Counted from the first letter of the stretch, positions 5,969-25,651 are shown. The stretch: DNA of 64,000 nt from Candidatus Bathyarchaeia archaeon (GCA_038727135.1 JAVYWL010000002.1:160001-224000); one strand, 5' to 3'. The notes: generated by a model from the letters alone, not told the origin. Program-made: numbers and translations.

Positions 5969-7447
5969 TTATGGTGTGTATTTGAACGGATGTTTTGCCC
6001 TTTCCTTATTTTCTATTAGCTCGTCTATTGTTGGTCTTCCCTCTATAGCTTTTCTTATGGCGTGGCGCATAGCCTTATAATTGTTTATGTAAACACGTTG
6101 CCTATCTACTGCCGACGGGTGCACAAAAACATTCGCGATTATGATTAGGTCCTCCACGGCCTCTTTTGGAATTGTGCCGTCTGTAACGCTGTCCACGACG
6201 GCTTTTGCTACCGCTGTTTGGGCTGGTCCATAAACGAGGCTTGCTTGACGCATGCTGGTTATCGTAACTGTTGGAACGATAAGGGTTATGGGCTTGACGG
6301 TTAGATTTGGCTCCAATATAGCCAACAGTGGCTCATGCCCTGGCGTTGGGGTAGCCTTAGCCTTAACAAAGGCTGCGCCCACAGGGCCATCTTTTCTGCC
6401 GATTACTAGGTCTATGTGGGCTACCTCTGCACCCGAGCCGGCTAGTGCCTCGCCTACTCGGAGGTTAAAGTCTTTTATTATTTCTGGGGTTATGTCAACT
6501 GCCATGAAGCGTTGCTCTAGGGGTTTTTCTCCAATTTCGAAGATTACTGGTTTTGGCTCTATTTTGCCGATTTTCTCCAAGTCTAGGCGTAGTTCTTCCC
6601 GAGCCTCGTAAGTTAACTCTCCCCCGACGCTGAGGGGCTGTCTTACTGGGCCAACCTTTATTTTCATCATGTTTAGGGCGGCTTTAACTCCAACCGGTCC
6701 GCTTGCTGCTATTATGCGGGCTATTTTCTGAACTTTGTATTGGAGTTCGCGGGCTTTTTGCAGCTCGCCGTTTTTTATGTGGTTGTATATTTGGATCCAT
6801 ATGTCCGGTATGAAGTTGGCGCTTGCGAGTATGGCGCCTGAACATCCTGCAGCCAATGCTGCCACAACAACTTCGTCGTGTCCGCAAAGCACTTTGATTT
6901 TGTCTCTAGCTTTTTCCAGCACAGCCAGTATATAGCCTAGTTGCCCGCTGCTGTCTTTTAAGCCCACAATGTTTGGTATTTGAGCCAAGTCTTCAACCAT
7001 TTGCCATGTCAGTTGCACACCAGTGCACTGCGGAATGTTGTATAGTATTATGGGCATGTCAACCTTGCTTGCTATGGTGTCAAAGTGCTCGTATATTCCA
7101 CGGTCTGCTGGCTTCAAATAAAATGGTGTGACAATTAGGGCAGCGTCAGCGCCAACGTCTTTAGCGTATTTAGTCATTTCTAGGGCTTGGTCTGTTCCGC
7201 TTGCTCCTGTTCCGGCTATGACTGGAACTCGTCCATTAACCTCGTCTACAACAACTTTAATGACTTGTTTCCGCTCTTCAACTGTCATATTAATGAATTC
7301 GCCTGTTGTGCCGCATGGAACAACACCGTGGACGCCCAACTCTATGCAGCGGTTTACCAGAAATCGCAGTCTTTCCGTGTCAACGGCTTTTCCGTCGTCG
7401 GTGAAGGGCGTGACAAGAGCTGGGAAAATTCCTTCAGGCTTGAACAT
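5969..7447 (-). CDS. DapA/NAL-family pyruvate aldolase fused to a formaldehyde-activating enzyme (Fae) domain
   Basis: N-terminal ~295 aa carry GTTGE, PFY, LYNIP and GLKDSSG. C-terminal ~165 aa carry VGEAL..G.EVAHIDL.IG, GH.PLLA.L.PNL..KP, GPAQ.AVAKAV.D, VFVHP, NY.A...AI and HPF. Confidence 0.9.
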   Translation of the reverse strand: MFKPEGIFPALVTPFTDDGKAVDTERLRFLVNRCIELGVHGVVPCGTTGEFINMTVEERKQVIKVVVDEVNGRVPVIAGTGASGTDQALEMTKYAKDVGADAALIVTPFYLKPADRGIYEHFDTIASKVDMPIILYNIPQCTGVQLTWQMVEDLAQIPNIVGLKDSSGQLGYILAVLEKARDKIKVLCGHDEVVVAALAAGCSGAILASANFIPDIWIQIYNHIKNGELQKARELQYKVQKIARIIAASGPVGVKAALNMMKIKVGPVRQPLSVGGELTYEAREELRLDLEKIGKIEPKPVIFEIGEKPLEQRFMAVDITPEIIKDFNLRVGEALAGSGAEVAHIDLVIGRKDGPVGAAFVKAKATPTPGHEPLLAILEPNLTVKPITLIVPTVTITSMRQASLVYGPAQTAVAKAVVDSVTDGTIPKEAVEDLIIIANVFVHPSAVDRQRVYINNYKAMRHAIRKAIEGRPTIDELIENKERAKHPFKYTP

Positions 7448-7527
7448 GCTTTTCCTCTCGAATTACCATAAATGTTAAACAATTTAAACTTTGAACTACA
7501 AATTATAGAATCTGTGGAGGAAACAGC

Positions 7528-8811
7528 TTGAAGGCGCTGAGAGAAAAATTGCTAATCGACGATAGAAATGTGAAGGAGGTTAACGCTTTCCTTTTGCTGG
7601 AGGACAACCCACTCATTAACGGGGTCCTCGAGATAATTGATAAGCATGGCGGAGTTGAGGAAATAAACAGAAAAGCTAAGGAAAATGGCAAACTTGAAAA
7701 TCTCATGAAGCGTCTTGAAGAGAAAAAGTCGCCTTTTATAAAAGACCTTGAGTGGTTAATAAAGCAGCGGGATAAAGGCGCGTTCATAAGCATACCAGAG
7801 TACCGCAGAAAAATCCTCGGTAAAAAAGCGGACTCCATGCGTTTCGACGAGTCCTTTGCCGTGACGCTTGAAATTAGCGCATGCAACTTTTTCCCGTGGC
7901 TTATTGAAGAGGCTAAGAAGGCAATTAAGCAGCAAGACCTTATGCCAGCCCGATATATCCGAGTACGTTCAATGAAAGAGCAGGTTGAAGACGGCGACAT
8001 TCTAGCTTTTGCCGCTGCAATGCAGATTATTGGAGCATCCTATGTGCAGACGCTTGACACGAAGGGAACAATGCCGGGTCCAGATGGAAAACCAATCAAC
8101 GTCCATTTAGGCGGACTGGAGACGATAACTGGGTATTTCGGCGGCATTGGTGTTCCAAACCAGTATGCCCTAAAATGGGTTGAAGAGTATCTGCACTATT
8201 ACACGGAATATGGCGTTAAGCAAGTTTTGAACACGAATTCTGGAACTGTTCTGCTTGGCTATCTACTCCATAAACTTGGAATAGACATCGAATTCAAAAT
8301 TTCAGTTTTCCTTGGAAATGATAATCCCTACTCGATTTTATGGACGCTTATGGCCGCCAAGCTCTTCAGCCGGAAAGATGGAACAACTCCTCTCATCGGG
8401 TTTAACCTATCAAACTCTGTGGACAACCGCACCATCGAGCTTTCAGCCTACATTAGAAAAGCCTTTGGTTTTGAGGACATTGTCCGCATAGAACACCATA
8501 TAACAGAAGCCTACAAGAGCATTGTCCGACAACCCTACGACCGACTAGGCGAACTTTTGGAACTGGCAGACCATGTGAAAAACATAAGCGCCAAACACGA
8601 GGGCGGAATACCAGAAGTGGAGAAAACCCGCGAACATCCATCAGACTTGCTTGACTACTTCATACCAAAGAAGGAAATAATGGAGAAGGGGCTCATGCAA
8701 AAACTCTTAGCCAACTACCTAGACAAGCATGACGCCGTAAACAGAACAGCAAAAGCCCTAACAGAAAAAGGCTTAACATTCGTCGCCGCGCAAAACCTAC
8801 ATAAAAAATAG
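7528..8811 (+). CDS. Conserved hypothetical enzyme-like protein (427 aa)
   Basis: Long soluble ORF divergent from the aldolase-Fae gene; motif-rich (TLDTKGT, NVHLGG, ITGYFGG, EHH, SAKHEGG). Confidence 0.8.
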   Translation: MKALREKLLIDDRNVKEVNAFLLLEDNPLINGVLEIIDKHGGVEEINRKAKENGKLENLMKRLEEKKSPFIKDLEWLIKQRDKGAFISIPEYRRKILGKKADSMRFDESFAVTLEISACNFFPWLIEEAKKAIKQQDLMPARYIRVRSMKEQVEDGDILAFAAAMQIIGASYVQTLDTKGTMPGPDGKPINVHLGGLETITGYFGGIGVPNQYALKWVEEYLHYYTEYGVKQVLNTNSGTVLLGYLLHKLGIDIEFKISVFLGNDNPYSILWTLMAAKLFSRKDGTTPLIGFNLSNSVDNRTIELSAYIRKAFGFEDIVRIEHHITEAYKSIVRQPYDRLGELLELADHVKNISAKHEGGIPEVEKTREHPSDLLDYFIPKKEIMEKGLMQKLLANYLDKHDAVNRTAKALTEKGLTFVAAQNLHKK

Positions 8812-16351: not shown

Positions 16352-17304
16352 TCCCTCTGAGCCTCTTCAATAGTTAAGCCAGTATAATGCGCGAAAACGT
16401 CGTCCAGCGAGGGCTCACTCATACGTATAGACCTAATCTGAACCTGCGTCTTCATAAAGAACTCGGTGATTTTAGGCAAGACCTCCTCTGCTTGGTTCAA
16501 GTAGATTTTCAAGTGATTCTGTTTTATAGCCAAAACATTGACAACTCTTGGAATCTCCTTTAATCTTTCAAGAACTTTGTCCGACACATCCCTCTCCAGG
16601 GTTATCTCTACAACGTCTCCGCCGGGTATGCTGTCCTTCAACTTTTTAGGCTCATCGCAGACAAGCAGTTTGCCCTTATGCATTATCGCCACCCTGTCCG
16701 AGAGCACGTCAGCCTCATAAAGCTCATTTGTCGCCAAAAGTATCGTGGAACCCTCGTCTCTAAGGTCCCGTAGCATGTTCCATATCCTATGCTTGCCCAC
16801 AACGTCTATTTGGGCGGTCGGTTCATCAACAATGGCAATTTTAGGTCTTTGGATTAAGATTTTGGCTATTTCCACACGTTTCCGCATGCCACCGGAAAAG
16901 GCATGCACGCTCTTGAAACGGTCGTTCCAAAGCTCAAGCTCCTCAAGAGCCCACCGCACCCTCTTCCTACGCTCGTCTGGTGGTAAGCCGCAAACTTTAG
17001 CGTGCCAGTTTAGTATGTCCCAAGGCGAGTCAACCCACAAAAGCTTAGGCTCTTGAAAAGCCATCCCCACGAGAGTTCTGGCCTTATCCGGCTCTTTAGT
17101 AACGTCGTAAGGTCCGATGTACGCTGTCCCCTCAGTTGGCTTAATAACAGTTGTAAGCATGAGCAAAGTTGTCGTCTTCCCAGCCCCATTAGGTCCGAGA
17201 ATCCCAAGGATTTCGCCCTCTTCTACCTCAAGGTTTAGATGGTCAACTGCCGTGAAATTGCCAAACTTTTTTGTGAGATTCACTATGCGGATTATCGGCG
17301 CCAT
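16348..17304 (-). CDS. ABC transporter ATP-binding protein (DrrA-like)
   Basis: GPNGAGKTT, FSGGM, IVDEPT, PSLDDVF. Confidence 0.93.
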   Translation of the reverse strand: MAPIIRIVNLTKKFGNFTAVDHLNLEVEEGEILGILGPNGAGKTTTLLMLTTVIKPTEGTAYIGPYDVTKEPDKARTLVGMAFQEPKLLWVDSPWDILNWHAKVCGLPPDERRKRVRWALEELELWNDRFKSVHAFSGGMRKRVEIAKILIQRPKIAIVDEPTAQIDVVGKHRIWNMLRDLRDEGSTILLATNELYEADVLSDRVAIMHKGKLLVCDEPKKLKDSIPGGDVVEITLERDVSDKVLERLKEIPRVVNVLAIKQNHLKIYLNQAEEVLPKITEFFMKTQVQIRSIRMSEPSLDDVFAHYTGLTIEEAQRE

Positions 17305-17347
17305 TTCCTATTCCTTGGTGAAATAAACACAGTTTGTTGGCTGTCAC

Positions 17348-18673
17348 TTAAAGATTACGTGACAGCAACTCAAAAGCATGTCTTTCGGCTTTTTCAACAA
17401 CCGTGTGCTCATCCAACGTTTTGACAATCCTATTTTCCATCAAGATTTTGCCGTCAACTATTACCGTGTCCACGTCGCTTCCCCTTGCAGAGTATACCAT
17501 GGCGGCGTAAATGTTGTGCAGAGGCTTTAGATGAGGCTTTCCCAAATCAACCAGAATTATGTCCGCTTTTTTCCCAACTTCCAATGAACCTATAATTCTT
17601 TCAAATCCTAAAGCTTTAGCCCCATTTATGGTCGCCATCTTTAAAACTTCATAAGCGGATAAAACTTCAGGCTTCTTGTAAATGAACTTTTGGAGTAGGG
17701 CCCCAAACTTCATGGTCTCAAACATGTCAAGGGAATTATTACTTGCCGGCCCATCGGTCCCCAGCGCAGTATTAACCCCTAACTCTATGAGTTCTTTGGC
17801 TTTTGCGGCGTTTAACCCAAGCTTCATGTTGGCCACCGGCACATAAACGGCGTTTACGTTGCTCCTCGCCAACATGTGCATATCCTTCTCGGTTAAGTTA
17901 ATGCAGTGGGCCGCTAGGACATGAACGCCAAAAAATCCAAGCCTTTCCAAGAATTCAACTTCGCCACAGCCATACTTTTCCTCATATTCCTTGAATAGTT
18001 CCGCCGACTCCGCCAAGTGAATATGAACGCCAACTCCGAGTTCTCGGGCTTTATCCCTAACTTCGGCAAGCAGTTCTGGGCTGCAACTGTAAGCCGCATG
18101 AGGCCCAAGCATTGTTTTCACTCTTCCATCTACATATCCATTAAAGGACTTGGCGAAGTTGACGCTCGCGTTTAGCATCTTCTCGCCTCGTGTCTTATCT
18201 CCAGCCTCAATGATGCCTTCAGCCAAAACAGCCCTTAAACCGCTTTCAGAAACCGCCCTAGCAACTGAGTCCTCATAGAAGTACATGTCTGCAAAGCATG
18301 TGGTCCCACTTTTCAGCATTTCCAAACAGCCCAAAAGGGCCCCAACATAAACATCGTCCCGCGTCAGCTTCGCCTCCAAAGGCCAAATAGTCTCCCGAAG
18401 CCACACATCCAAGGGCTTGTCTTCGGCCAACCCCCTAAAAAGAGTCATAGCCACATGAGTATGACAGTTAATCAGTCCGGGAAGCGCAACTTTACCCTTC
18501 GCGTTTAGCTTTTTATCCGCCGATATACCAACTGTCGAATCATATTTGCCAACAAAAATTATTTCCCCATTCTTTATGGCTATGGCACCATTCTCAACAG
18601 CGTCTACGCCGCCGTCCTTCATAGGTAAAACCGTGCATCCATAAATCAAGATGTCAGCCTTCACAAGCACCAC
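17348..18673 (-). CDS. Amidohydrolase, MTA/SAH/5'-deoxyadenosine deaminase family
   Basis: PGLINCHTH, PHAAY, HIHLAE, AAHC, LGTDG, GKKAD. Confidence 0.88.
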   Translation of the reverse strand: MVLVKADILIYGCTVLPMKDGGVDAVENGAIAIKNGEIIFVGKYDSTVGISADKKLNAKGKVALPGLINCHTHVAMTLFRGLAEDKPLDVWLRETIWPLEAKLTRDDVYVGALLGCLEMLKSGTTCFADMYFYEDSVARAVSESGLRAVLAEGIIEAGDKTRGEKMLNASVNFAKSFNGYVDGRVKTMLGPHAAYSCSPELLAEVRDKARELGVGVHIHLAESAELFKEYEEKYGCGEVEFLERLGFFGVHVLAAHCINLTEKDMHMLARSNVNAVYVPVANMKLGLNAAKAKELIELGVNTALGTDGPASNNSLDMFETMKFGALLQKFIYKKPEVLSAYEVLKMATINGAKALGFERIIGSLEVGKKADIILVDLGKPHLKPLHNIYAAMVYSARGSDVDTVIVDGKILMENRIVKTLDEHTVVEKAERHAFELLSRNL

Positions 18674-18767
18674 AAAAACTAGAAGAGTGTGTGAAAAATA
18701 AAAAGTGTGCTAGCTGGCTACTTGATTTTCCGGGCCTTCTCCCCTCCGCAAGCAAATTAGGCTAGTT

Positions 18768-19202
18768 TTAGAAGCTGAATCCGTGGTTATGCTTCTCTAC
18801 CCTCTTAACCAGAGAGTGCAAAGCCGGCTGCGCCAAATCTTCGCCTATAGCAGAGCCTTTTGGAACCCCGGTTGCGCCAATCTTCTTGCAAATGAAGTTA
18901 AGCGAATCCTCAGTGAAGTTCAGGAGGTTTTGTCCCTCAGCCGTAAGCTTGTAAACTTTTCTGGGGCGTTCGTTTGACATGTCCCACTCACTTTTGACAT
19001 AGCCGCTCTTTTCCAGGGCGTTCAAAAGTGGGTAAATTGTGCTTGGGCCGAAGTATACGCCGAAGTTTTTGCGGATTTTGGTTATTATCTGGTAGCCGTG
19101 CATGGGCTGAGAGCTTAGGAACTGAAGCACTATCAGGTCTAGGAGGCCCTTCATAAGTTTAACTTGGACCTCTTTTGAGCTGTTCACCACGGCTTTTCCC
19201 AT
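18768..19202 (-). CDS. PadR-family transcriptional regulator
   Basis: MHGYQI, STIYPLL..LE..G, RKVYKLT..G; probable start at ATG 19202. Confidence 0.9.
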   Translation of the reverse strand: MGKAVVNSSKEVQVKLMKGLLDLIVLQFLSSQPMHGYQIITKIRKNFGVYFGPSTIYPLLNALEKSGYVKSEWDMSNERPRKVYKLTAEGQNLLNFTEDSLNFICKKIGATGVPKGSAIGEDLAQPALHSLVKRVEKHNHGFSF

Positions 19203-19233
19203 CCTTTTCTGTATTTTTGTTAGACACGAATAC

Positions 19234-19257
19234 GATATGTCCACTTTTAGACATATC
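19234..19257. promoter_or_regulatory. Palindromic PadR-type operator GATATGTC-N8-GACATATC
   Basis: Perfect 8-bp inverted repeat between two divergent PadR genes; contains ATGT-N10-ACAT. Confidence 0.6.
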
Positions 19258-19315
19258 TCAAGACTCTATAAAGCATAAACAAAAATATAAAGGTTCACGC
19301 TTACCGAAAACATAA

Positions 19316-19344
19316 AAAAGCATAACAAAAGCATAACAAAAGCT
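19316..19344 (+). repeat. Tandem AAAAGCATAAC repeats
   Basis: About 2.5 copies of an 11-mer, with a related copy near 19269. Confidence 0.55.
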
Positions 19345-19397
19345 ATTCCAAAACATGCATAATCCATATAAACCCAACAAAGATAAGTCAAAAACAG

Positions 19398-19735
19398 AAC
19401 ACAAAAAGGCAAACAAAATGGAAGAAAACCTCAAAAAAGAAATTGTTCAACACATAACCAAAAACCTACTAGACATCCAAATAATGTGCCTAGTAAGCAA
19501 AGAACCAGCATGGGGATACAAAATAAAAAAGCAAATAGAAGCCTTCTCTGGACTAAAAATACGCCACGGAGCCCTATACCCACTACTCAAAAAACTTGAA
19601 AACAAAGGTCTAATAAAAAGCCAAAAACAACAGCAAGGAAAACGCACAAGAAAAGTATACACAATAACCGATAAAGGAAAAACATATATAAACGTATATT
19701 ATCATGTGCTGAAAGAGCAATGGGGTATTAATTAA
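19398..19735 (+). CDS. PadR-family transcriptional regulator
   Basis: AWGYKI, GALYPLLKKLE..G, RKVYTIT.KG; start taken at MEENLKK. Confidence 0.88.
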
Positions 19736-19776
19736 TTTTAAGTGATTTAAAGTGACTATACTTAAAATGAAGAATT

Positions 19777-20763
19777 ATGACTCCTAAAATTGGTAAAATA
19801 GTTGTCGCTGATCTTAAAAAGCGAAGTAAGAAAGGGTTAAGGTTGGCTAAGCAAATACTTAAAGCGGAGAAAATTGGGAATCCAACACTGCGTGAGGCGC
19901 TTGAACACTATGTTGAATATTGGAGCGACTTTGTCCACCCAGGATTATTCTCAATAGCATGTGAAGCTGTCGGAGGCAGCATCGACAACCTTCGATTAGC
20001 ACAAGCATCAATAGCCATGATGGCAGCAGCATTTGACATACATGATGACATACTAGACAAGTCTAAAGTTAAATATGGAATACCTACAGTTTACGGCAAG
20101 TTTGGTGCTGAAATTGCGCTTCTCCTAGGCGATGCACTATTAATAGAGAGTTTCAAACTTTTTATTGATTCAACAAGAATGTTGCCAAAGAAAACAATTA
20201 GGAGCGCGCTTAGCACAATTAAAAAATTAACTTTCGAGGTTGGCAACGCGCATGTTTTTGAGGTTGTCATAAAAAAAGGGAGGGAGGTTACACCGGATAA
20301 TTATATGCAGGTCATTAAGATGAAAGCGGCTGGAATTGAGTTGGACATGCACCTCGGTGCACTTTTGGGTGGAGGAACTACAAAAGATGTTAAAGTTTTG
20401 GCAAAATTGGGTAGAATAATTGGGATTTTGGGCATGCTTCGTGAAGAATTTATCGATATTTTTGAAGTAGAAGAGCTTTCTCAACGAATCGCTGTCCAGG
20501 ATTTACCATTACCTATAATATTTGCAATGCGCGATCATAAAGCAAAAATAAAGCTATCAAGCATTATTTCAAAGCCTAAAATAACGAACGAAGATGTTGA
20601 TGAACTATTAGACATAGTTTTCGAATCTGATAAAATTGTCAACTTAAAAAGAAAAATGCAATGCCTACAGAGGCAAGGATTGGAGCTTATTAAAGTAATC
20701 CACAATAATGAACCTAAAAATAAATTAGAGTCTATTTTACTTTTTATGCTTGAGGACTTGTAG
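19777..20763 (+). CDS. Polyprenyl-synthetase-fold protein with degenerate SARM and IPP site (ComQ-like prenyltransferase candidate)
   Basis: FARM DIHDDILD and ALLLGDAL kept. GKRxRP replaced by DFVHP, RRG by KYG, and SARM by LREEFID. Confidence 0.8.
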   Translation: MTPKIGKIVVADLKKRSKKGLRLAKQILKAEKIGNPTLREALEHYVEYWSDFVHPGLFSIACEAVGGSIDNLRLAQASIAMMAAAFDIHDDILDKSKVKYGIPTVYGKFGAEIALLLGDALLIESFKLFIDSTRMLPKKTIRSALSTIKKLTFEVGNAHVFEVVIKKGREVTPDNYMQVIKMKAAGIELDMHLGALLGGGTTKDVKVLAKLGRIIGILGMLREEFIDIFEVEELSQRIAVQDLPLPIIFAMRDHKAKIKLSSIISKPKITNEDVDELLDIVFESDKIVNLKRKMQCLQRQGLELIKVIHNNEPKNKLESILLFMLEDL

Positions 20764-20774
20764 TAGTAACTAAA

Positions 20775-20834
20775 TTACATACCAGCTCTAATCGGAATTT
20801 CTCTCTTTTTAGCTCTTTTTATTGCGCCTTTCAC
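20775..20834 (-). CDS. Putative 19-aa peptide MKGAIKRAKKREIPIRAGM (not in the ORF track)
   Basis: GTG start, purine-rich leader, and a TATA-like box ~37 nt upstream. Confidence 0.45.
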   Translation of the reverse strand: MKGAIKRAKKREIPIRAGM

Positions 20835-20870
20835 CCTTCATCCCTGTATTAGTGTACAACAAATCTACTA

Positions 20871-20898
20871 ATAAAACTTTCTGCGAAGAAAGTTTTAT
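20871..20898. promoter_or_regulatory. Palindromic back-to-back BRE/TATA promoter
   Basis: ATAAAACTTTCT-GCGA-AGAAAGTTTTAT; each strand reads GAAAGTTTTAT about 35 nt before a start codon. Confidence 0.65.
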
Positions 20899-20931
20899 CT
20901 TGTAGGGCTACTATTAGCGAGCTAGAAAAAG

Positions 20932-22164
20932 ATGACCATCACAAAATTGTCTAAAAAGAAAAACGCATTAACAAGATCTTCTTCGTCAGTCTTCTTGGTA
21001 ATCAATAGTTTTGTGTGGTTCACATTAACTCATGCTGCTTTTAACACAGCAGTAAATGAGGCAATTTTGTCTGAAAACGAAAAACTAAGCTTATTTACTT
21101 TCTACTATGTAGGTATTGCAGTTTCAGCAGTGGTAGGTTCAAAATTTTTCCCTCAAAAACGGGTTAAATACCTTAAATTATGGCCTTTTATTGGGGGTAT
21201 TGCCACACTTTTAATGTCTGCTTTTTTTGTTAATAACCTAGCAGTTAACATATTACTTGCCTTTTTCCTCGGTATTTCTATTGGAGTAGGGTTTCCTTCT
21301 TGCATGGGAAATTTTGCTGATTCAACATTCATCGAGGAACGAGGTTTTATAGGCGGAGTGGTATGGAGCGCCGTAGGATTCTTTGTATTACTTTTTGCCA
21401 TTTTAATAAGTATGTTTGGGCGATTGGAAATGATCATTATGTTAGCGCTGTGGCGATTCCTCGGAGGCGCTGGTTTTCTATTTATGCAACAAAAATGTGA
21501 GACATTTCACACTCGGAAATCTCTCAGTTACGCAGAGATCCTTCATAAAAAAGATACATTGCTATATTTATTTCCATGGATTCTGTTTTGTATTATAAAC
21601 TGGGCAGAAATACCGATAATAGAAAAAGCCTTTACAGCTGTAGGAATAGATTTTTCATTCGTTTTACTTGTGGAATTTGCGCTTATAGGTGTCTTTGCGC
21701 TACTGGGAGGGATTATTGCAGACGCTATAGGTAGAAAACGCGTAGTTATTGCCGGATTCATAATGTTGGGCATAGAATATGCTGCAATGAGTATATCTTT
21801 CAACTCTCCCATAACTTTATATCTATTTTTAACTTTTGACGGCTCAACATGGGGATTGTTTTTTTCAGTTTTCTTTATGACTCTTTGGGGAGATCTTGGC
21901 GAAAATTATGAAAAAGAAAAATACTACATTTTAGGCGGTCTTCCATACCTTCTTGCAGGTTTCGTGTCAGTTTTAATTGAACCCTACGTTCGCGTCATTT
22001 CTTCAGCGGCGGCATTTTCTTTTGCAAGTTTTTTCTTGTTCTTGGCTGTTGTTCCTTTAATGTTTGCTCCCGAGACTTTGCCTGAAAAAGCGCTCAAGGA
22101 GAGGGAGCTTCGGAGTTATATTGAGAAGGCTAAGCGGGTTAGGGAAAAGTTTACGAAGAGCTGA
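20932..22164 (+). CDS. MFS transporter
   Basis: About 12 TM; GIIADAIGRKR motif A; PET near the C-terminus. Confidence 0.88.
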   Translation: MTITKLSKKKNALTRSSSSVFLVINSFVWFTLTHAAFNTAVNEAILSENEKLSLFTFYYVGIAVSAVVGSKFFPQKRVKYLKLWPFIGGIATLLMSAFFVNNLAVNILLAFFLGISIGVGFPSCMGNFADSTFIEERGFIGGVVWSAVGFFVLLFAILISMFGRLEMIIMLALWRFLGGAGFLFMQQKCETFHTRKSLSYAEILHKKDTLLYLFPWILFCIINWAEIPIIEKAFTAVGIDFSFVLLVEFALIGVFALLGGIIADAIGRKRVVIAGFIMLGIEYAAMSISFNSPITLYLFLTFDGSTWGLFFSVFFMTLWGDLGENYEKEKYYILGGLPYLLAGFVSVLIEPYVRVISSAAAFSFASFFLFLAVVPLMFAPETLPEKALKERELRSYIEKAKRVREKFTKS

Positions 22165-22176
22165 TTAGCTTTTGCT

Positions 22177-23313
22177 TTGCTGGTGGGCTGTGTGTTCTTT
22201 CATGTTATGTTGACGACTGAGTGTGACTTGGAGTGTCGTTATTGTTTTGGTGAAGCCTTAGAGGATTTTTGCGGCGGTTTTGGCGGTTTTGATGTTGATT
22301 ATTCTTTGCCTAAGCGTTTAGGCTATGATGTTAGCTTGCTAGAGCGTTTTTGTGGGCTTGATTCTGATTGTGTTTTGATTTTTTATGGTGGTGAGCCTCT
22401 TTTATGCTTGGATGATGTTAAGCGTATAATGGATAGCGTTAATGCGAGGCGTTTTGCTGTTCAGACGAATGGTTTACATTTGAGCTGTTTAGAACCAGCC
22501 TATGTTAATCGTTTTAGTGTTATTTTGGTGTCTGTCGATGGGGATGAGGCCCTAACCGATTATTATCGTGGTGGGGGCGTTTACCGTCGGGTTGTGGAGA
22601 ATTTGAGGCAGATTAAGCGTAATGGCTTTAATGGTGAGGTTATTGCTCGGATGACTGTTATGGAGGAAACTGACATCTATGGGCAGGTTTTGTGGCTTCT
22701 AGGCAATGATGATTTTGCCTTTTCTTCTGTTCATTGGCAGCTTAACGCTGGTTTTTGGAACGATTTTGAGAGGCGGAATTTCAAAGAATGGGTTGAGAGA
22801 AGTTATAATCCTGGAATTCGCCGCCTCGTGAAGTTTTGGGTTGACCAGATGGAGAAGCACGGCGTTGTTTTGAGGCTTTACCCGTTTTTGGGCGTGGCGC
22901 AGTCTCTTTTGCTTGGTGAGGAAAAGTCGCCTTTAAGATGTGGCGCTGGTTGGATTAATTATGCTATTCAGACGGATGGGCATATTGTGCCTTGTCCAAG
23001 CATGTGGGGCATGCGGGACTTCTATGTTGGGCACATTAGCACTGCGCATCCATTGAGGCTTAGGAAGGTTTTTGTGGGCGAGCCTTGCACAAGCTGTGGA
23101 ATTTTCGGCGTTTGTGGCGGCAGATGCCTATACGCCAACCTCACGAGGCGCTGGAGTCCAGAAGCCTATAGGCTTGTCTGCAAAACCGTTGAGAACATGA
23201 TTAATGCCATAATGGATGAGTTGCCGAGAATTAGGGAGCTTATTAGAACTGGCAGGATAAGGGTTGAGGATTTCAACTTTTTAAAGTATGTTGGTTGTGA
23301 AATAATTCCGTAG
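22177..23313 (+). CDS. Radical SAM/SPASM protein (AF0577/TIGR04084-like)
   Basis: CDLECRYC, FYGGEP, SPASM Cys cluster, C-terminal GCEIIP. Confidence 0.85.
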   Translation: MLVGCVFFHVMLTTECDLECRYCFGEALEDFCGGFGGFDVDYSLPKRLGYDVSLLERFCGLDSDCVLIFYGGEPLLCLDDVKRIMDSVNARRFAVQTNGLHLSCLEPAYVNRFSVILVSVDGDEALTDYYRGGGVYRRVVENLRQIKRNGFNGEVIARMTVMEETDIYGQVLWLLGNDDFAFSSVHWQLNAGFWNDFERRNFKEWVERSYNPGIRRLVKFWVDQMEKHGVVLRLYPFLGVAQSLLLGEEKSPLRCGAGWINYAIQTDGHIVPCPSMWGMRDFYVGHISTAHPLRLRKVFVGEPCTSCGIFGVCGGRCLYANLTRRWSPEAYRLVCKTVENMINAIMDELPRIRELIRTGRIRVEDFNFLKYVGCEIIP

Positions 23314-23506
23314 TAGCGTATGGTCATATTTGTGGCTACTGGGATTTAACAAATATGCTAACTTCTCTAAGTTTTCCACCACAACTTTCCCATTTGGAAG
23401 GGAAAATAAGCTAAACTGCAATTTTATTTTCGCTACCTCCTTCTCCTCTAGACTTTGAGGTAAGATTTAAACCTGAAAATGCGCCTACTTCAATTGTGAG
23501 TTAAGA

Positions 23507-24214
23507 TTGCCCGCCTTCTTGGAAATTGAAGGGAGAATTGTGGAAGGAGTTTTTAGGAAGCGGCTGACCCGTTTTTCGGCACAGGTGGAGGTTGGCGGGA
23601 AAAATGTTGAGTGCTTTTTGCCTAACCCTGGAAGGCTCAGCGAGCTGCTGTTTTCTGGCGTTAGGGTTGTCTTGAAAGAGGCGGCGATCGTCGGTTTCAG
23701 GAAGACTGTTTACGACCTTGTAGGCGTTTATCATGGTGGCAAAGTGGTTTCCGTTGACGCCCGCATACCCAACAAGCTTGTTTTTAAAGCGTTGAAGAAC
23801 GGTGACTTGCCGGAGTTTCTTGGCTACATAGTTATTAAATCTGAGCACCCTTATGGGCGTGCAAAGTTCGACTTTCTCCTTGAAGGTTTAGGGCTTAAAT
23901 CATGCCTTTTGGAGGTTAAGTCTTGCACTCTTGTCCGTTACGGGATTGCAATGTTTCCAGACGCCCCAACCGAGAGAGGTACGCGACAACTTTTTGAGCT
24001 TGTTAAAGCCTTAAAGGATGGTTATAGGGCTGCTGTGCTTTTTGTTATTCAAAGAGACGATGCCTACCGGTTTACAGCGAATGATGAGACGGATCCAAAA
24101 TTTGGCAGGGCTCTTCGGGAAGCCTATAGGCAGGGGGTGGAGGTTTATGCTTACTCGGCGAGTTTTGCCGAAAATAGGGTTTGGCTTAACGGAAGGGTTA
24201 GGGTTTTGCTTTAG
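23507..24214 (+). CDS. sfsA: DNA/RNA nuclease SfsA
   Basis: PNPGRL, DFLL, EVKSCTL, FPDAPTERG. Confidence 0.9.
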   Translation: MPAFLEIEGRIVEGVFRKRLTRFSAQVEVGGKNVECFLPNPGRLSELLFSGVRVVLKEAAIVGFRKTVYDLVGVYHGGKVVSVDARIPNKLVFKALKNGDLPEFLGYIVIKSEHPYGRAKFDFLLEGLGLKSCLLEVKSCTLVRYGIAMFPDAPTERGTRQLFELVKALKDGYRAAVLFVIQRDDAYRFTANDETDPKFGRALREAYRQGVEVYAYSASFAENRVWLNGRVRVLL

Positions 24215-24264
24215 CCATGTTGATTTGAGCCGCTAAAAAGGGAAATTATAAAAATAGGTTTTGC

Positions 24265-24918
24265 ATGAGAAAATTTAACCCAAAAATGATGGAGATGGCG
24301 TTGATGGCCAAGGCTGTGCAGAGGAAGTTTGTGGCTGTTGACCCTGCCAAGTGCACGGGCTGCAGCCTATGCGAATACGTTTGTGTTTTGGAAAAGAATG
24401 AGCCTTTATGGAATCCTTTAAGGTCTAGGATCAGGGTTATACGCCTAACACCAGCCTTTAACCTGGCTTTGACATGCCGCTTCTGTGAGAACGCCCCATG
24501 TGTTAGGGCTTGTCCGAGGAAAGCCTTAACCCAGTCTGAGGAGGGCTTCATCCTTGTTGATGAAGCTAAATGTGACCGATGCGGCTGGTGTATACAGGCT
24601 TGCCCGTATGGCGGGGTTTCTCTCCACCCGGATAAAACTTCTGTTTTGGTTTGCGACCTTTGTAAAGACAAGCCAGAGGGACCCCAATGCGTGGAGTTTT
24701 GTCCAGAAGAAGCCCTGGAACTTGTGAGCGGAAATGATGTTGTAACTAAGAAGTGGCTGACTGCCATGGAAAAGATACCATCAAACATTGAGAAGCTGAC
24801 AAACCTTGTTAATAGGCGGGAGTGGGCTGTCCTATTTGAAGAAGCCGAAGACAGGGCGAAGAGGCTTTCAGAAAAGCTTGAGGCAATTAACAAAAAGTGG
24901 GGCTACAAGCTAAGGTAG
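24265..24918 (+). CDS. 4Fe-4S dicluster (DmsB/CooF-like) electron-transfer protein
   Basis: Four Cys clusters, e.g. CTGCSLCEYVC, CRFCENAPCVRACP, CDRCGWCIQACP. Confidence 0.87.
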   Translation: MRKFNPKMMEMALMAKAVQRKFVAVDPAKCTGCSLCEYVCVLEKNEPLWNPLRSRIRVIRLTPAFNLALTCRFCENAPCVRACPRKALTQSEEGFILVDEAKCDRCGWCIQACPYGGVSLHPDKTSVLVCDLCKDKPEGPQCVEFCPEEALELVSGNDVVTKKWLTAMEKIPSNIEKLTNLVNRREWAVLFEEAEDRAKRLSEKLEAINKKWGYKLR

Positions 24919-24989: not shown

Positions 24990-25232
24990 ATGGCAGAAAT
25001 CGTCGTAAAAGAAATCGACTCTCAAGGGAGAGTGTCAATTCCAGCACGCTGGCGGAAGAATTTTAAATCTCGTAAACTTGCGTTGATAAAACGGGGAAAT
25101 AGAATAGAAATAGTTTCTGTGGAAGCACTTTCACCTTCCGCATTGTTCGACTCAATAAGAGTTTCTGAAAATGTGGATTTTACTGATTCCCATGCTCTTA
25201 AGAAGGCTTTGTCGGAGCTTAATGAACGTTGA
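24990..25232 (+). CDS. vapB: AbrB/MazE-type antitoxin (VapB)
   Basis: IDSQGRVSIPARWR; overlaps the PIN gene. Confidence 0.85.
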   Translation: MAEIVVKEIDSQGRVSIPARWRKNFKSRKLALIKRGNRIEIVSVEALSPSALFDSIRVSENVDFTDSHALKKALSELNER

Positions 25233-25651
25233 AGTTTGTAGATTCAAACATTTTTCTTCACGCTTACCTGGTCCCCCGTAGAACTTTAACAAAAGATGAG
25301 CAGAGAGTTAAGGACGAAGCCAAAGCTATTGTGAGGAGGATAGAAGAGGGCGAAGAGGTCGCCATCACAGTTGTTCACCTTTCAGAAGTTGTAAATGTAG
25401 TGGAGGCGGGACTTGGCATTAAGGAATCTTTGGGCTTTTTGGCATGGGTTGTGACAAGCGAAAATGTGAAGGTGTACTCGGTTGGCGCAAAAGACTATGA
25501 GGCAGCGTTACTATTGGCGAAAGAAAAAGAGATAGGTGCCAATGATGCTTTGGCTTATTTATTCATGAAGGCTCATGGGATAAGCGAAATTTACACCTTC
25601 GACAAACACTTTAAAAAATTAGGGGACATAACAAAACTGCCAGAAATGTAG
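25229..25651 (+). CDS. vapC: VapC PIN-domain toxin
   Basis: FVDSNIF, HLSE, NDAL, IYTFDKHF. Confidence 0.9.
   Translation: MKFVDSNIFLHAYLVPRRTLTKDEQRVKDEAKAIVRRIEEGEEVAITVVHLSEVVNVVEAGLGIKESLGFLAWVVTSENVKVYSVGAKDYEAALLLAKEKEIGANDALAYLFMKAHGISEIYTFDKHFKKLGDITKLPEM

Follow-up and report, generated by a model that had tools for sequence, protein, structure and literature searches.

All characterised peptide prenyltransferases with the fold of isoprenyl diphosphate synthases (IDS) are bacterial and all act on Trp, according to the accessible part of a 2026 review, in which the sole archaeal lipidation is that of archaeol on a lipobox Cys (PMC13290415). A 2014 census, in the portion available, places comQXPA-like loci in Firmicutes only (PMC4008528), and pherotypes have been described at the comQXPA locus (PMC4408185). 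The 69-residue precursor StheX is prenylated at its penultimate Trp, and in the accessible text the Trp peptide prenyltransferases carry a pseudo-form, NDxxx, of the second Asp-rich motif (SARM) and no second metal site (bioRxiv 10.64898/2026.08.29.745113). PalX is prenylated at its terminal Trp by the IDS-superfamily enzyme PalQ (PMC10853753; PMC13290415), and enzymes of the PalQ/ChrPC P domain type share a Gln immediately preceding the SARM, for which a role in recognising Trp is proposed (PMC13290415). Here we describe a locus in a 64,000-nucleotide (nt) stretch of DNA from a Candidatus Bathyarchaeia archaeon (the window; G000:C2:160001-224000) in which a diverged IDS paralog (IDSp), a 19-codon gene and part of a transporter gene of the major facilitator superfamily (MFS) form a hypervariable cassette. 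We propose, at a probability of about 0.55, that this cassette serves peptide prenylation and export in a manner analogous to ComQ/ComX and with an independent origin. A literature search that took in few subscription journals and no supplements returned no description of this locus and no archaeal IDS-fold peptide prenylation.

The locus resembles ComQ/ComX and StheQ/StheX in its trans-IDS fold, its conserved first aspartate-rich motif (FARM), the adjacent small precursor gene, the variable C-terminal region of the precursor and, in part of the alleles only, Trp near the C-terminus. It further shares with ComQ/ComX a strong allelic diversity of the locus, and with PalQ/PalX a terminal Trp, which is found in 9 of 88 peptides. 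There are differences as well: the host is an archaeon, the peptide gene runs towards the enzyme gene from the opposite strand, and the precursors count 12-21 residues instead of the 69 of StheX, with a bare polybasic head in place of the NHLP leader of PalX. ComP and ComA are missing beside the cassette and a PadR pair and the MFS gene stand in their place; Pfam and NCBIfam scans of the eight genes between 17.3 and 24.9 kb detected no histidine kinase or receiver domain.

IDSp is encoded at 19777-20763 (+) and matches PF00348 at 82 bits in a Pfam scan. It scores 110 bits against the IdsA model at a cut-off of 468 and stays far under the cut-offs of every named IDS model, and a second PF00348 gene on contig 1 of the genome (221 bits) represents the canonical geranylgeranyl diphosphate synthase (GGPPS). 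The AlphaFold2 model of IDSp has an all-alpha trans-IDS fold (pLDDT 93, pTM 0.91), and a Foldseek search with this model returned IDS structures at TM scores of 0.7-0.83, headed by the P. horikoshii GGPPS 1wy0 (TM 0.83), with the indole prenyltransferase Ord1 only at rank 29 (TM 0.68-0.69). Alignment with 1wy0 (E 6e-17) revealed that DDILD is retained (residues 90-94 of IDSp), while GKRVRP has become SDFVHP, RRG has become KYG and DDVLD has become EEFID (residues 223-227). The isoprenyl-synthase fold with an intact first DDxxD, and the loss of the GKRxR and RR motifs that bind isopentenyl diphosphate (IPP), had been recognised in the first-pass annotation of the window; its additional claim that the second DDxxD was lost is overstated.

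This became evident from the family as a whole. Loci were collected from sampled genomes (20) and from a species-representative genome collection (79), and after removal of identical enzymes 94 loci remained, the window included; motifs were counted in an alignment of these 94 non-identical family members and the genome's own GGPPS. The FARM DDxxD is present in 94/94, with D90, D91 and D94 invariant, and the SARM position reads [D/E](88/94)-[D/E](94/94)-x-x-D(94/94), with Asn at the first place in 4/94 only; EEFID of the window is one version, DDxxD that of many orthologs. The KT motif keeps its Lys in 93/94. The GGKRWRP region now reads W(90/94)-x-D/N/E(86/94)-F/V-x-H(80/94)-P, so that K has been replaced by D, N or E in 86/94, one R by F or V, and the other by H in 80/94. 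RRG has turned into K(94/94)-x-x, the second R being gone in all 94, six residues are deleted after the SARM, the next Lys is Cys or Asp, and the C-terminal ERK is now EDL. Judged by these columns, the allylic-diphosphate and metal site is strongly constrained and the predicted second-substrate pocket has turned from basic to acidic/hydrophobic. Since every basic IPP-binding residue is gone, IDSp cannot be counted among the elongating IDS; its sequence is compatible with a transferase using a non-IPP acceptor and equally with an IDS-type terpene synthase, two functions that sequence cannot separate.

Comparison with the described enzymes places IDSp closest to canonical archaeal GGPPS (IdsA, 1wy0), its best match in both sequence and structure, with which it shares the FARM and the KT Lys and from which it differs in that GKRxR, RR and the basic residues at the C-terminus are gone and six residues are deleted after the SARM. 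It is nearer to these enzymes than to ComQ or Ord1, its SARM position is acidic and no NDxxx pseudo-SARM as in ComQ and StheQ, and the residue preceding the SARM, Gln in PalQ/ChrPC, is Arg in 90/94 (Gly in 2, Lys in 2). The ComQ-like kinship suggested in the first-pass annotation thus fails on the pseudo-SARM as well as on the upstream Gln, and the sequences point to a recruitment from archaeal GGPPS stock that was probably independent of the ComQ family. IDSp was found in 31 of the 61 genomes of one Bathyarchaeia order that we surveyed for presence and absence, and was not found in the other 30. A protein Atlas search with IDSp returned only Bathyarchaeota polyprenyl synthetase clusters, and relatives of the window proteins carry the source names Bathyarchaeia or Bathyarchaeota. 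One locus with the cassette, L085, comes from a Candidatus Bathyarchaeum record.

Four loci (L038, L039, L075 and L102) contain a second IDSp copy, arranged in tandem in the first three and located past the MFS gene in L102. The copies of L038 lie at 6064-7143 and 7130-8137, the tandem ends overlap in L038 and L039, and in these two the first copy is prolonged at the C-terminus by a basic stretch of ~25 residues. The double-IDSp loci showed a single peptide gene, past the second copy.

The candidate substrate is encoded by a mini-precursor gene of 19 codons with a GTG start at 20775-20834 (-), convergent with IDSp. The stop of this small gene lies 11 nt past the enzyme stop at 20761-20763, as had been claimed. 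The predicted peptide opens with a Lys/Arg-rich head, continues with Pro-Ile-Arg and ends in an Ala-Gly-Met tail. Relatives were searched between the IDSp stop and the MFS start with a strict pattern that demanded P-[IVLMTA]-R, a stop after 2-12 further residues, and three or more Lys/Arg among the 10 residues before P-x-R. This pattern occurred on the minus strand in 73/94 loci and on the plus strand in 1/94, against a mean of 0.55/94 in shuffled sequences (20 shuffles each). A looser pattern raised the number to 82 loci, and inspection of the remaining 12 by eye added six variant open reading frames (ORFs) with L-V-R, P-F-R, S-V-R, V-V-R or L-D-R replacing P-x-R. A small ORF is thus present at the equivalent position in 88/94 loci; L126 and L051 have neither a small ORF nor a downstream MFS gene. 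Restricted to ATG starts, the pattern gave 53 matches at the expected place and 11 elsewhere in 842 kb searched in six frames.

The variation among these ORFs follows codons. The Pro is encoded by CCA (42), CCT (18), CCG (13) and CCC (9), and the Arg by CGA (30), AGA (28), AGG (9), CGG (6), CGC (5) and CGT (4). Mean entropy at codon positions 1/2/3 amounts to 1.05/0.96/1.61 bits, and close ORF pairs differ at these positions 76/41/188 times, where the selection pattern itself fixes the first two positions in the Pro and Arg codons, so that only the remaining codons are informative. The conservation of the small ORF has the signature of a coding sequence and not of a DNA or RNA motif, and we take the ORF to be a real gene. 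A syntenic small ORF in relatives, which the first-pass annotation had named as the check on its proposal, is accordingly there, and its sequence changes in step with those of the enzyme and the MFS transporter.

Among the 82 pattern ORFs, 66 start with ATG, 10 with GTG and 5 with TTG, and one start is unassigned. The window ORF starts with GTG and has an ATG 10 nt upstream that is out of frame; at 20835-20846 an ATG-AAG similar to the usual start of relatives is off frame by one base. A true frameshift could underlie this configuration, as could a misread G run; alternatively, GTG may be the proper start, as in the nine other pattern ORFs that begin with it. A 27-codon plus-strand ORF at 20822-20905 was considered and rejected, as it has no counterpart in relatives. 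One locus (L041:1573-2613) carries a 1-kb insertion with a 148-codon ORF between the peptide gene and the MFS gene.

The peptides have a median length of 16 residues and a common plan: a Lys/Arg-rich head (32% Lys, 18% Arg) leads into Pro-x-Arg, which hardly varies, and the tail that follows is hypervariable. Beyond the Arg there are 2-9 residues, most commonly 4, to which Trp contributes 18%, Gly 12%, Leu 11% and Phe 10%. Aromatic residues occur in 74/88 tails and Trp in 55/88, the L042 and L099 types being examples of Trp alleles; the last Trp occupies the penultimate position in 38 peptides and the final one in 9. StheQ and PalQ prenylate a Trp that is the last residue or adjoins it, as given in the accessible parts of the sources (bioRxiv 10.64898/2026.08.29.745113; PMC10853753). 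The composition is uneven across the family. Most non-aromatic tails belong to a clade with enzymes at least 45% identical to that of the window, in which Trp occurs in 4/23 and Pro in 14/23 tails, compared with Trp in 51/65 of the remainder. The earlier caveat that the peptide contains neither Trp nor Cys consequently applies to the window's own clade and does not extend to the family.

Polybasic C-termini with a prenyl group are familiar from eukaryotes, where a Lys/Arg stretch is followed by a short prenylated tail, and fungal lipopeptide pheromones of the a-factor type combine a dedicated exporter with multi-allelic loci. Eukaryotic and fungal prenylation takes place on the Cys of a CaaX box and is catalysed by alpha/beta heterodimeric prenyltransferases; here, in contrast, only 2/88 tails contain Cys and the enzyme has an IDS fold. 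Enzyme columns that track the tail Trp were identified (Y45F, Q76 and A84G with phi ~0.8, F86A with 0.6, the last two just before the FARM), and this association was dropped as evidence because the columns follow two deep clades and are inseparable from shared ancestry.

An indication that enzyme, peptide and transporter belong together comes from the polymorphism of the locus. Median identity to the window proteins amounts to 67% for the flanking amidohydrolase (n=24), 70.5% for PadR1 (n=43), 55% for PadR2 (n=44) and 65.5% for a radical S-adenosylmethionine (rSAM) protein encoded downstream (n=55), and drops to 38% for both IDSp (n=93) and MFS (n=82). The mismatch between flanks and cassette is largest in the closest relatives: flank proteins of L107 are 81-94% identical, with IDSp at 36% and MFS at 39%, and those of L079 are 79-91% identical, with IDSp at 42% and MFS at 46%. 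Overall, relatives whose flanks are 84-88% identical in DNA have IDSp and MFS proteins that are only 35-42% and 39-46% identical, respectively. Comparison of the window with L107 by blastn revealed 84% identity over 16983-19737, no alignment over 19738-22008 and 88% identity over 22009-24728, and L079, L099, L123 and L109 break at the same places. In these five relatives the flanks are 70-88% identical, and the alignment is lost or nearly so from ~19707-19737 to 21831-22015.

The AT-rich cassette at 19738-22008 accordingly spans IDSp, the small convergent gene, the bidirectional promoter and the MFS gene up to about codon 360, and it coincides with the AT-rich core that had already been noticed (GC content of 36.5%, against 44.0% and 45.8% in the flanks). 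Its right edge lies inside the MFS gene, ~155 nt before the stop, so that the C-terminal ~50 residues go with the flank. Metagenome contigs agree with these edges. In four hot-spring runs the summed depth reached 150-1500 on 19300-19687 and 22016-22200 and 7-23 in between, single metagenome contigs join 19656-19690 to 22048-22063, and one contig of 2621 nt holds ~2.4 kb of unlike sequence between both sides; as such joints at 85% likeness can stem from other organisms, we take them only as agreeing with the blastn results.

Pairwise identities point in the same direction. Among 35 locus pairs with rSAM proteins at least 80% identical, the 25 lowest have IDSp identities of 28-47%. Spearman coefficients amount to 0.62 for IDSp-MFS (n=81), 0.79 for PadR1-PadR2 (n=41) and 0.59 for PadR1-rSAM (n=22), compared with 0.20 for IDSp-rSAM (n=56), 0.21 for IDSp-PadR2 (n=45) and 0.12 for IDSp-PadR1 (n=44), although permutation counts on these correlations overstate significance because the loci are mutually related. 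As far as sequences tell, IDSp, its peptide and the membrane-spanning portion of the MFS protein behave as one co-adapted allele that is apparently swapped as a unit between close relatives, and PadR1, PadR2 and rSAM behave as flanks.

The MFS gene (20932-22164, +) points away from the peptide gene, encodes a divergent member of the superfamily and lies downstream of IDSp on the same strand in 86 of the 89 loci with room for it. The window protein matches MFS_1 at 24.7 bits, under the cut-off of 33.4; MFS_1 is nevertheless matched by 18/18 aligned homologs (best E 1.5e-20), and the model has a 12-helix fold (pLDDT 87; TM 0.64-0.73 to VMAT2, SV2A and sialin), in agreement with the earlier assignment. 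A motif-A-like D-x-x-G-R-K-R is present with D264, G267, R268 and K269 invariant, and the last ~50 residues are conserved. We propose that the transporter may act as the exporter, or the specificity partner, of the modified peptide.

Two divergent PadR genes, also part of the first-pass annotation, precede the cassette: PadR1 at 18768-19244 (-) and PadR2 at 19355-19735 (+), which match PF03551 at 70 and 76 bits (cut-off 27), with PadR2 ending at the left cassette edge. A divergent PadR pair precedes IDSp in 42/87 loci and one of the two in 5 more. A 23-bp palindromic putative operator of the GTATnnnTGTnnnACAnnnATAC type lies at the PadR1/PadR2 divergent promoter (19211-19233), and a second at 20846-20868, between the TATA-like box of the peptide gene and its start codon. 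The true start of PadR1 is probably the Met at 19202, which would place the operator just upstream of the gene, because homologous ORFs are shorter and because of the position of the operator; a shorter form of PadR2 starting at 19418 is possible.

A position weight matrix (PWM) was derived from 61 loci, using the palindrome ahead of each peptide ORF. Above 12 bits it has two matches only in the 64-kb window, the best at 20846-20868 (27.6 bits) and the other at 19211-19233. It matches the enzyme-MFS gap in 89/94 loci, up to 61 of which are training loci, and the PadR1-PadR2 intergenic region in 31/40 loci, none of which was used in training; elsewhere it has only 13 matches in 842 kb. Inspection by eye placed a putative bidirectional promoter core at 20870-20899 with two outward-facing TATA-like boxes of the TTTTAT type, which form the inverted repeat AAAACTTTCT/AGAAAGTTTT at 20874-20897. 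Upstream of the peptide ORFs the order, again by eye, is a TATA-like TTTTAAG or CTTAAGTA, the palindrome, a purine run GGAG/GAGG resembling a Shine-Dalgarno sequence and the start codon, and GTTTTATC lies ~33 nt ahead of the MFS starts in the clade of the window.

The simplest reading of these matches is a predicted PadR autoregulation in which the same PadR protein also controls the divergent peptide and MFS promoters; co-regulation, as anticipated in the first-pass annotation, is thus borne out to the extent that the PadR promoter region and the peptide/MFS promoter have one predicted operator in common. Its further idea, a PadR that senses the product, may hold, though not with PadR2 as a specificity-matched sensor. 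We rejected PadR2 as an allele-specific receptor, as it stays with the conserved flank and co-varies with PadR1 (0.79) instead of IDSp (0.21). In L033 the cassette lies in another place and adjoins a small winged helix-turn-helix (wHTH) gene and the gene for leucyl-tRNA synthetase (LeuRS). Among five genomes with the cassette elsewhere, four keep the divergent PadR1/PadR2 pair at another place, and the fifth (G139) has a PadR1 match at a contig end with no adjacent PadR2 listed.

Nine of the 94 loci contain in the operon a gene of the geranylgeranyl reductase family (TIGR02032; 168 bits at a cut-off of 159), either directly before IDSp (L107, L070, L068, L034 and L108) or after the MFS gene (L065, L059, L049 and L048). 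The reductases are of two sequence types and occupy these two different operon positions, and that of L107 (2851-3903) falls in the part of the locus where the DNA no longer resembles the window. Their presence is an independent link between the operon and a prenyl chain of the C20 type. Contigs with cassette enzymes from L070, L108 and L126 are filed under bacterial bins (Caldiserica, Acidoferrum and Actinomycetota); L070 and L108 are likely mis-binned, because they show a full archaeal-type neighbourhood.

Taken as a prenylated-peptide system, the locus might operate as follows. A precursor of 19 residues in the window, and of 12-21 in relatives, would be made from its own promoter. IDSp would bind and ionise an allylic prenyl diphosphate via its two acidic Mg2+ motifs, and its former IPP pocket would take up the peptide, with the near-invariant Arg as likely anchor. 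The prenyl group could then be placed on the short C-terminal tail, presumably on a Trp at the last or last-but-one position in most alleles, and on some other acceptor in Trp-less alleles such as that of the window, and the MFS protein would export or flip the prenylated product. As the same 23-bp palindrome is found at the PadR and at the peptide/MFS promoter, the two are probably repressed by a PadR protein. Co-adapted alleles that are exchanged in this way would suit recognition, be it by a pherotype-like signal or in the form of a lipopeptide weapon that comes with its matched exporter. The sequences show the genes with their motifs and conservation, the coding signature, the polymorphic cassette and the operator common to both promoters; from these we infer prenyl transfer to the peptide, acceptor residue, donor length, export, PadR control and biological role, and the cassette polymorphism fits a strain-specific signal and a weapon alike. 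A more specific version, in which the GGPPS-derived enzyme geranylgeranylates (or farnesylates) the peptide, the reductase saturates the chain in some alleles and the matched MFS protein, whose transmembrane domain would co-evolve with the product, releases a strain-specific signal or kin-discrimination cue in a pherotype system, is tentative and, in our estimation, less likely than not.

Several observations weigh against peptide prenylation. Tails without any aromatic residue occur in 14/88 peptides, the AGM of the window included, and 12 of these 14 are also devoid of nucleophilic side chains, TLPL, TTPII, LSI and LCL being the exceptions by virtue of a Thr, Ser or Cys; hence the acceptor cannot be Trp in all alleles. 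In L035, L036 and L058 inspection of the gap revealed no small ORF beside an intact enzyme and MFS gene, and L063 has an ORF remnant only, with no start codon. The peptide copy of the window itself could be damaged, given its GTG start and the out-of-frame ATG. IDSp moreover has neither of the two marks of the known Trp-peptide prenyltransferases, the pseudo-SARM ND and the upstream Gln, and its signature is the same as that of an IDS-type terpene synthase, as far as the accessible part of the report on the latter goes (PMC6140472).

This last point leads to the alternative that fares best, in which IDSp is an IDS-type terpene synthase or a small-molecule prenyltransferase, the MFS protein exports a lipid that PadR senses, and the peptide is otherwise employed, e.g. 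in regulation. IDSp retains the two acidic motifs and has given up the IPP site alone, as in the similar-looking harlequin-bug enzyme MhTPS, which is of trans-IDS origin, keeps the FARM and the SARM, and has SDAW for KKxR where IDSp has W-S-D-F at the matching place; MhTPS is eukaryotic and, in the portion of the source available, is associated with no peptide gene, transporter or cassette polymorphism (PMC6140472). The 14/88 non-aromatic tails and the three to four loci without the ORF could be accommodated by such an enzyme, and the geranylgeranyl reductase of the operon would suit a free terpenoid equally well. PadR together with an MFS transporter is, in addition, a common pairing for small-molecule efflux. 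A terpene synthase would, however, provide no role for a peptide gene kept at the exact same spot in 88/94 loci, and would leave unexplained its Trp-enriched hypervariable tail and its place in a recombining cassette behind the same operator. Peptide position, Trp enrichment and co-diversification are the reasons why we favour a peptide prenyltransferase and consider a terpene synthase unlikely. What remains of the cassette proposed in the first-pass annotation is its architecture, the syntenic ORF, the co-diversification and the common operator; loss of the SARM, membership in the ComQ family and PadR2 as a specificity-matched sensor had to be given up.

The rSAM gene next to the cassette offers a second alternative, as the peptide might be matured by this TIGR04084 rSAM/SPASM protein, e.g. 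by a Trp cross-link, with IDSp being incidental. The gene (22177-23313, +; 308 bits at a cut-off of 225) is part of the conserved flank, follows the MFS gene in 60/78 loci, with gaps of ~3 to 30 nt in 20 loci, and keeps this adjacency in the second chromosomal context beside LeuRS; the protein weakly matches peptide maturases such as PapB (84 bits). Across the 61 genomes, IDSp and TIGR04084 occur together in 21, IDSp alone in 10, rSAM alone in 14 and neither in 16, where absence from incomplete genomes is no proof and the ten IDSp-only genomes are 59 to 100% complete, four of them 96-100%. These counts and the low IDSp-rSAM correlation (Spearman 0.20) led us to reject rSAM as an obligate partner. 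The gene furthermore lies outside the cassette, evolves like the flanks (65.5% compared with 38% for IDSp), and has family members in Sulfolobus acidocaldarius, which was included as a control. We therefore regard maturation by rSAM in place of IDSp as highly unlikely; an accessory role of rSAM on the conserved head of the peptide is conceivable. The AF0577-type rSAM protein is in itself strongly conserved (median 65.5%) and occurs without the cassette in 14 of the 61 genomes. An extra ORF between the MFS and rSAM genes occurs in L072 (6624-7610) and L129 (5936-6634); the two share their N-terminal sequence, and by eye they resemble an acetyltransferase.

Finally, that IDSp would be a non-catalytic or modulatory subunit which alters chain length together with the canonical GGPPS or a second IDSp, in the manner of small subunits in heteromeric prenyl diphosphate synthases, an idea to which the lost IPP-binding residues, the single canonical GGPPS elsewhere in the genome (221 bits) and the second IDSp copy in L038, L039, L075 and L102 would lend themselves, is scarcely credible given that the three FARM Asp and the last SARM Asp are invariant in 94/94, which argues for catalysis, that allele swapping and linkage to MFS and peptide genes are ill-suited to a housekeeping lipid function, and that the gene was not found in 30/61 genomes of the order.

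The wider surroundings comprise the amidohydrolase gene at 17348-18673 (-) on the left and, in profile scans, sfsA and a ferredoxin-like gene on the right, up to 24.9 kb. At 24990-25651 two adjacent ORFs of 80 and 140 codons resemble, by eye, an AbrB/SpoVT-type antitoxin and a PIN-domain toxin. PADLOC gave no match for IDSp or MFS and only weak wHTH and viperin-like matches for the PadR proteins and rSAM, an outcome on which a reading of the locus as a defence island was dropped. The host genome has a size of 1.55 Mb and is 94.7% complete. The stretch was found in nine DNA sequencing runs, all of them hot-spring metagenomes from four studies, and no RNA run was among the matches.

With IDSp in 31/61 genomes of one Bathyarchaeia order, the locus is a widely distributed candidate, and its 88 natural triplets of enzyme, peptide and transporter constitute a resource for deriving specificity rules. 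The peptide gene was previously unannotated, which illustrates that genes of 12-21 codons overlooked by gene callers can sit at the centre of a system. The locus also provides a clear case of cassette-type allelic exchange in uncultured archaea and points to social or antagonistic interactions hidden in metagenomes. If the proposed function is true, it would give Archaea their first case of ribosomal peptide prenylation and their first cell-cell recognition based on a peptide, with an evolutionary origin separate from that of ComQXPA, and the Trp-less alleles would add an acceptor chemistry that is new to IDS-fold transferases.

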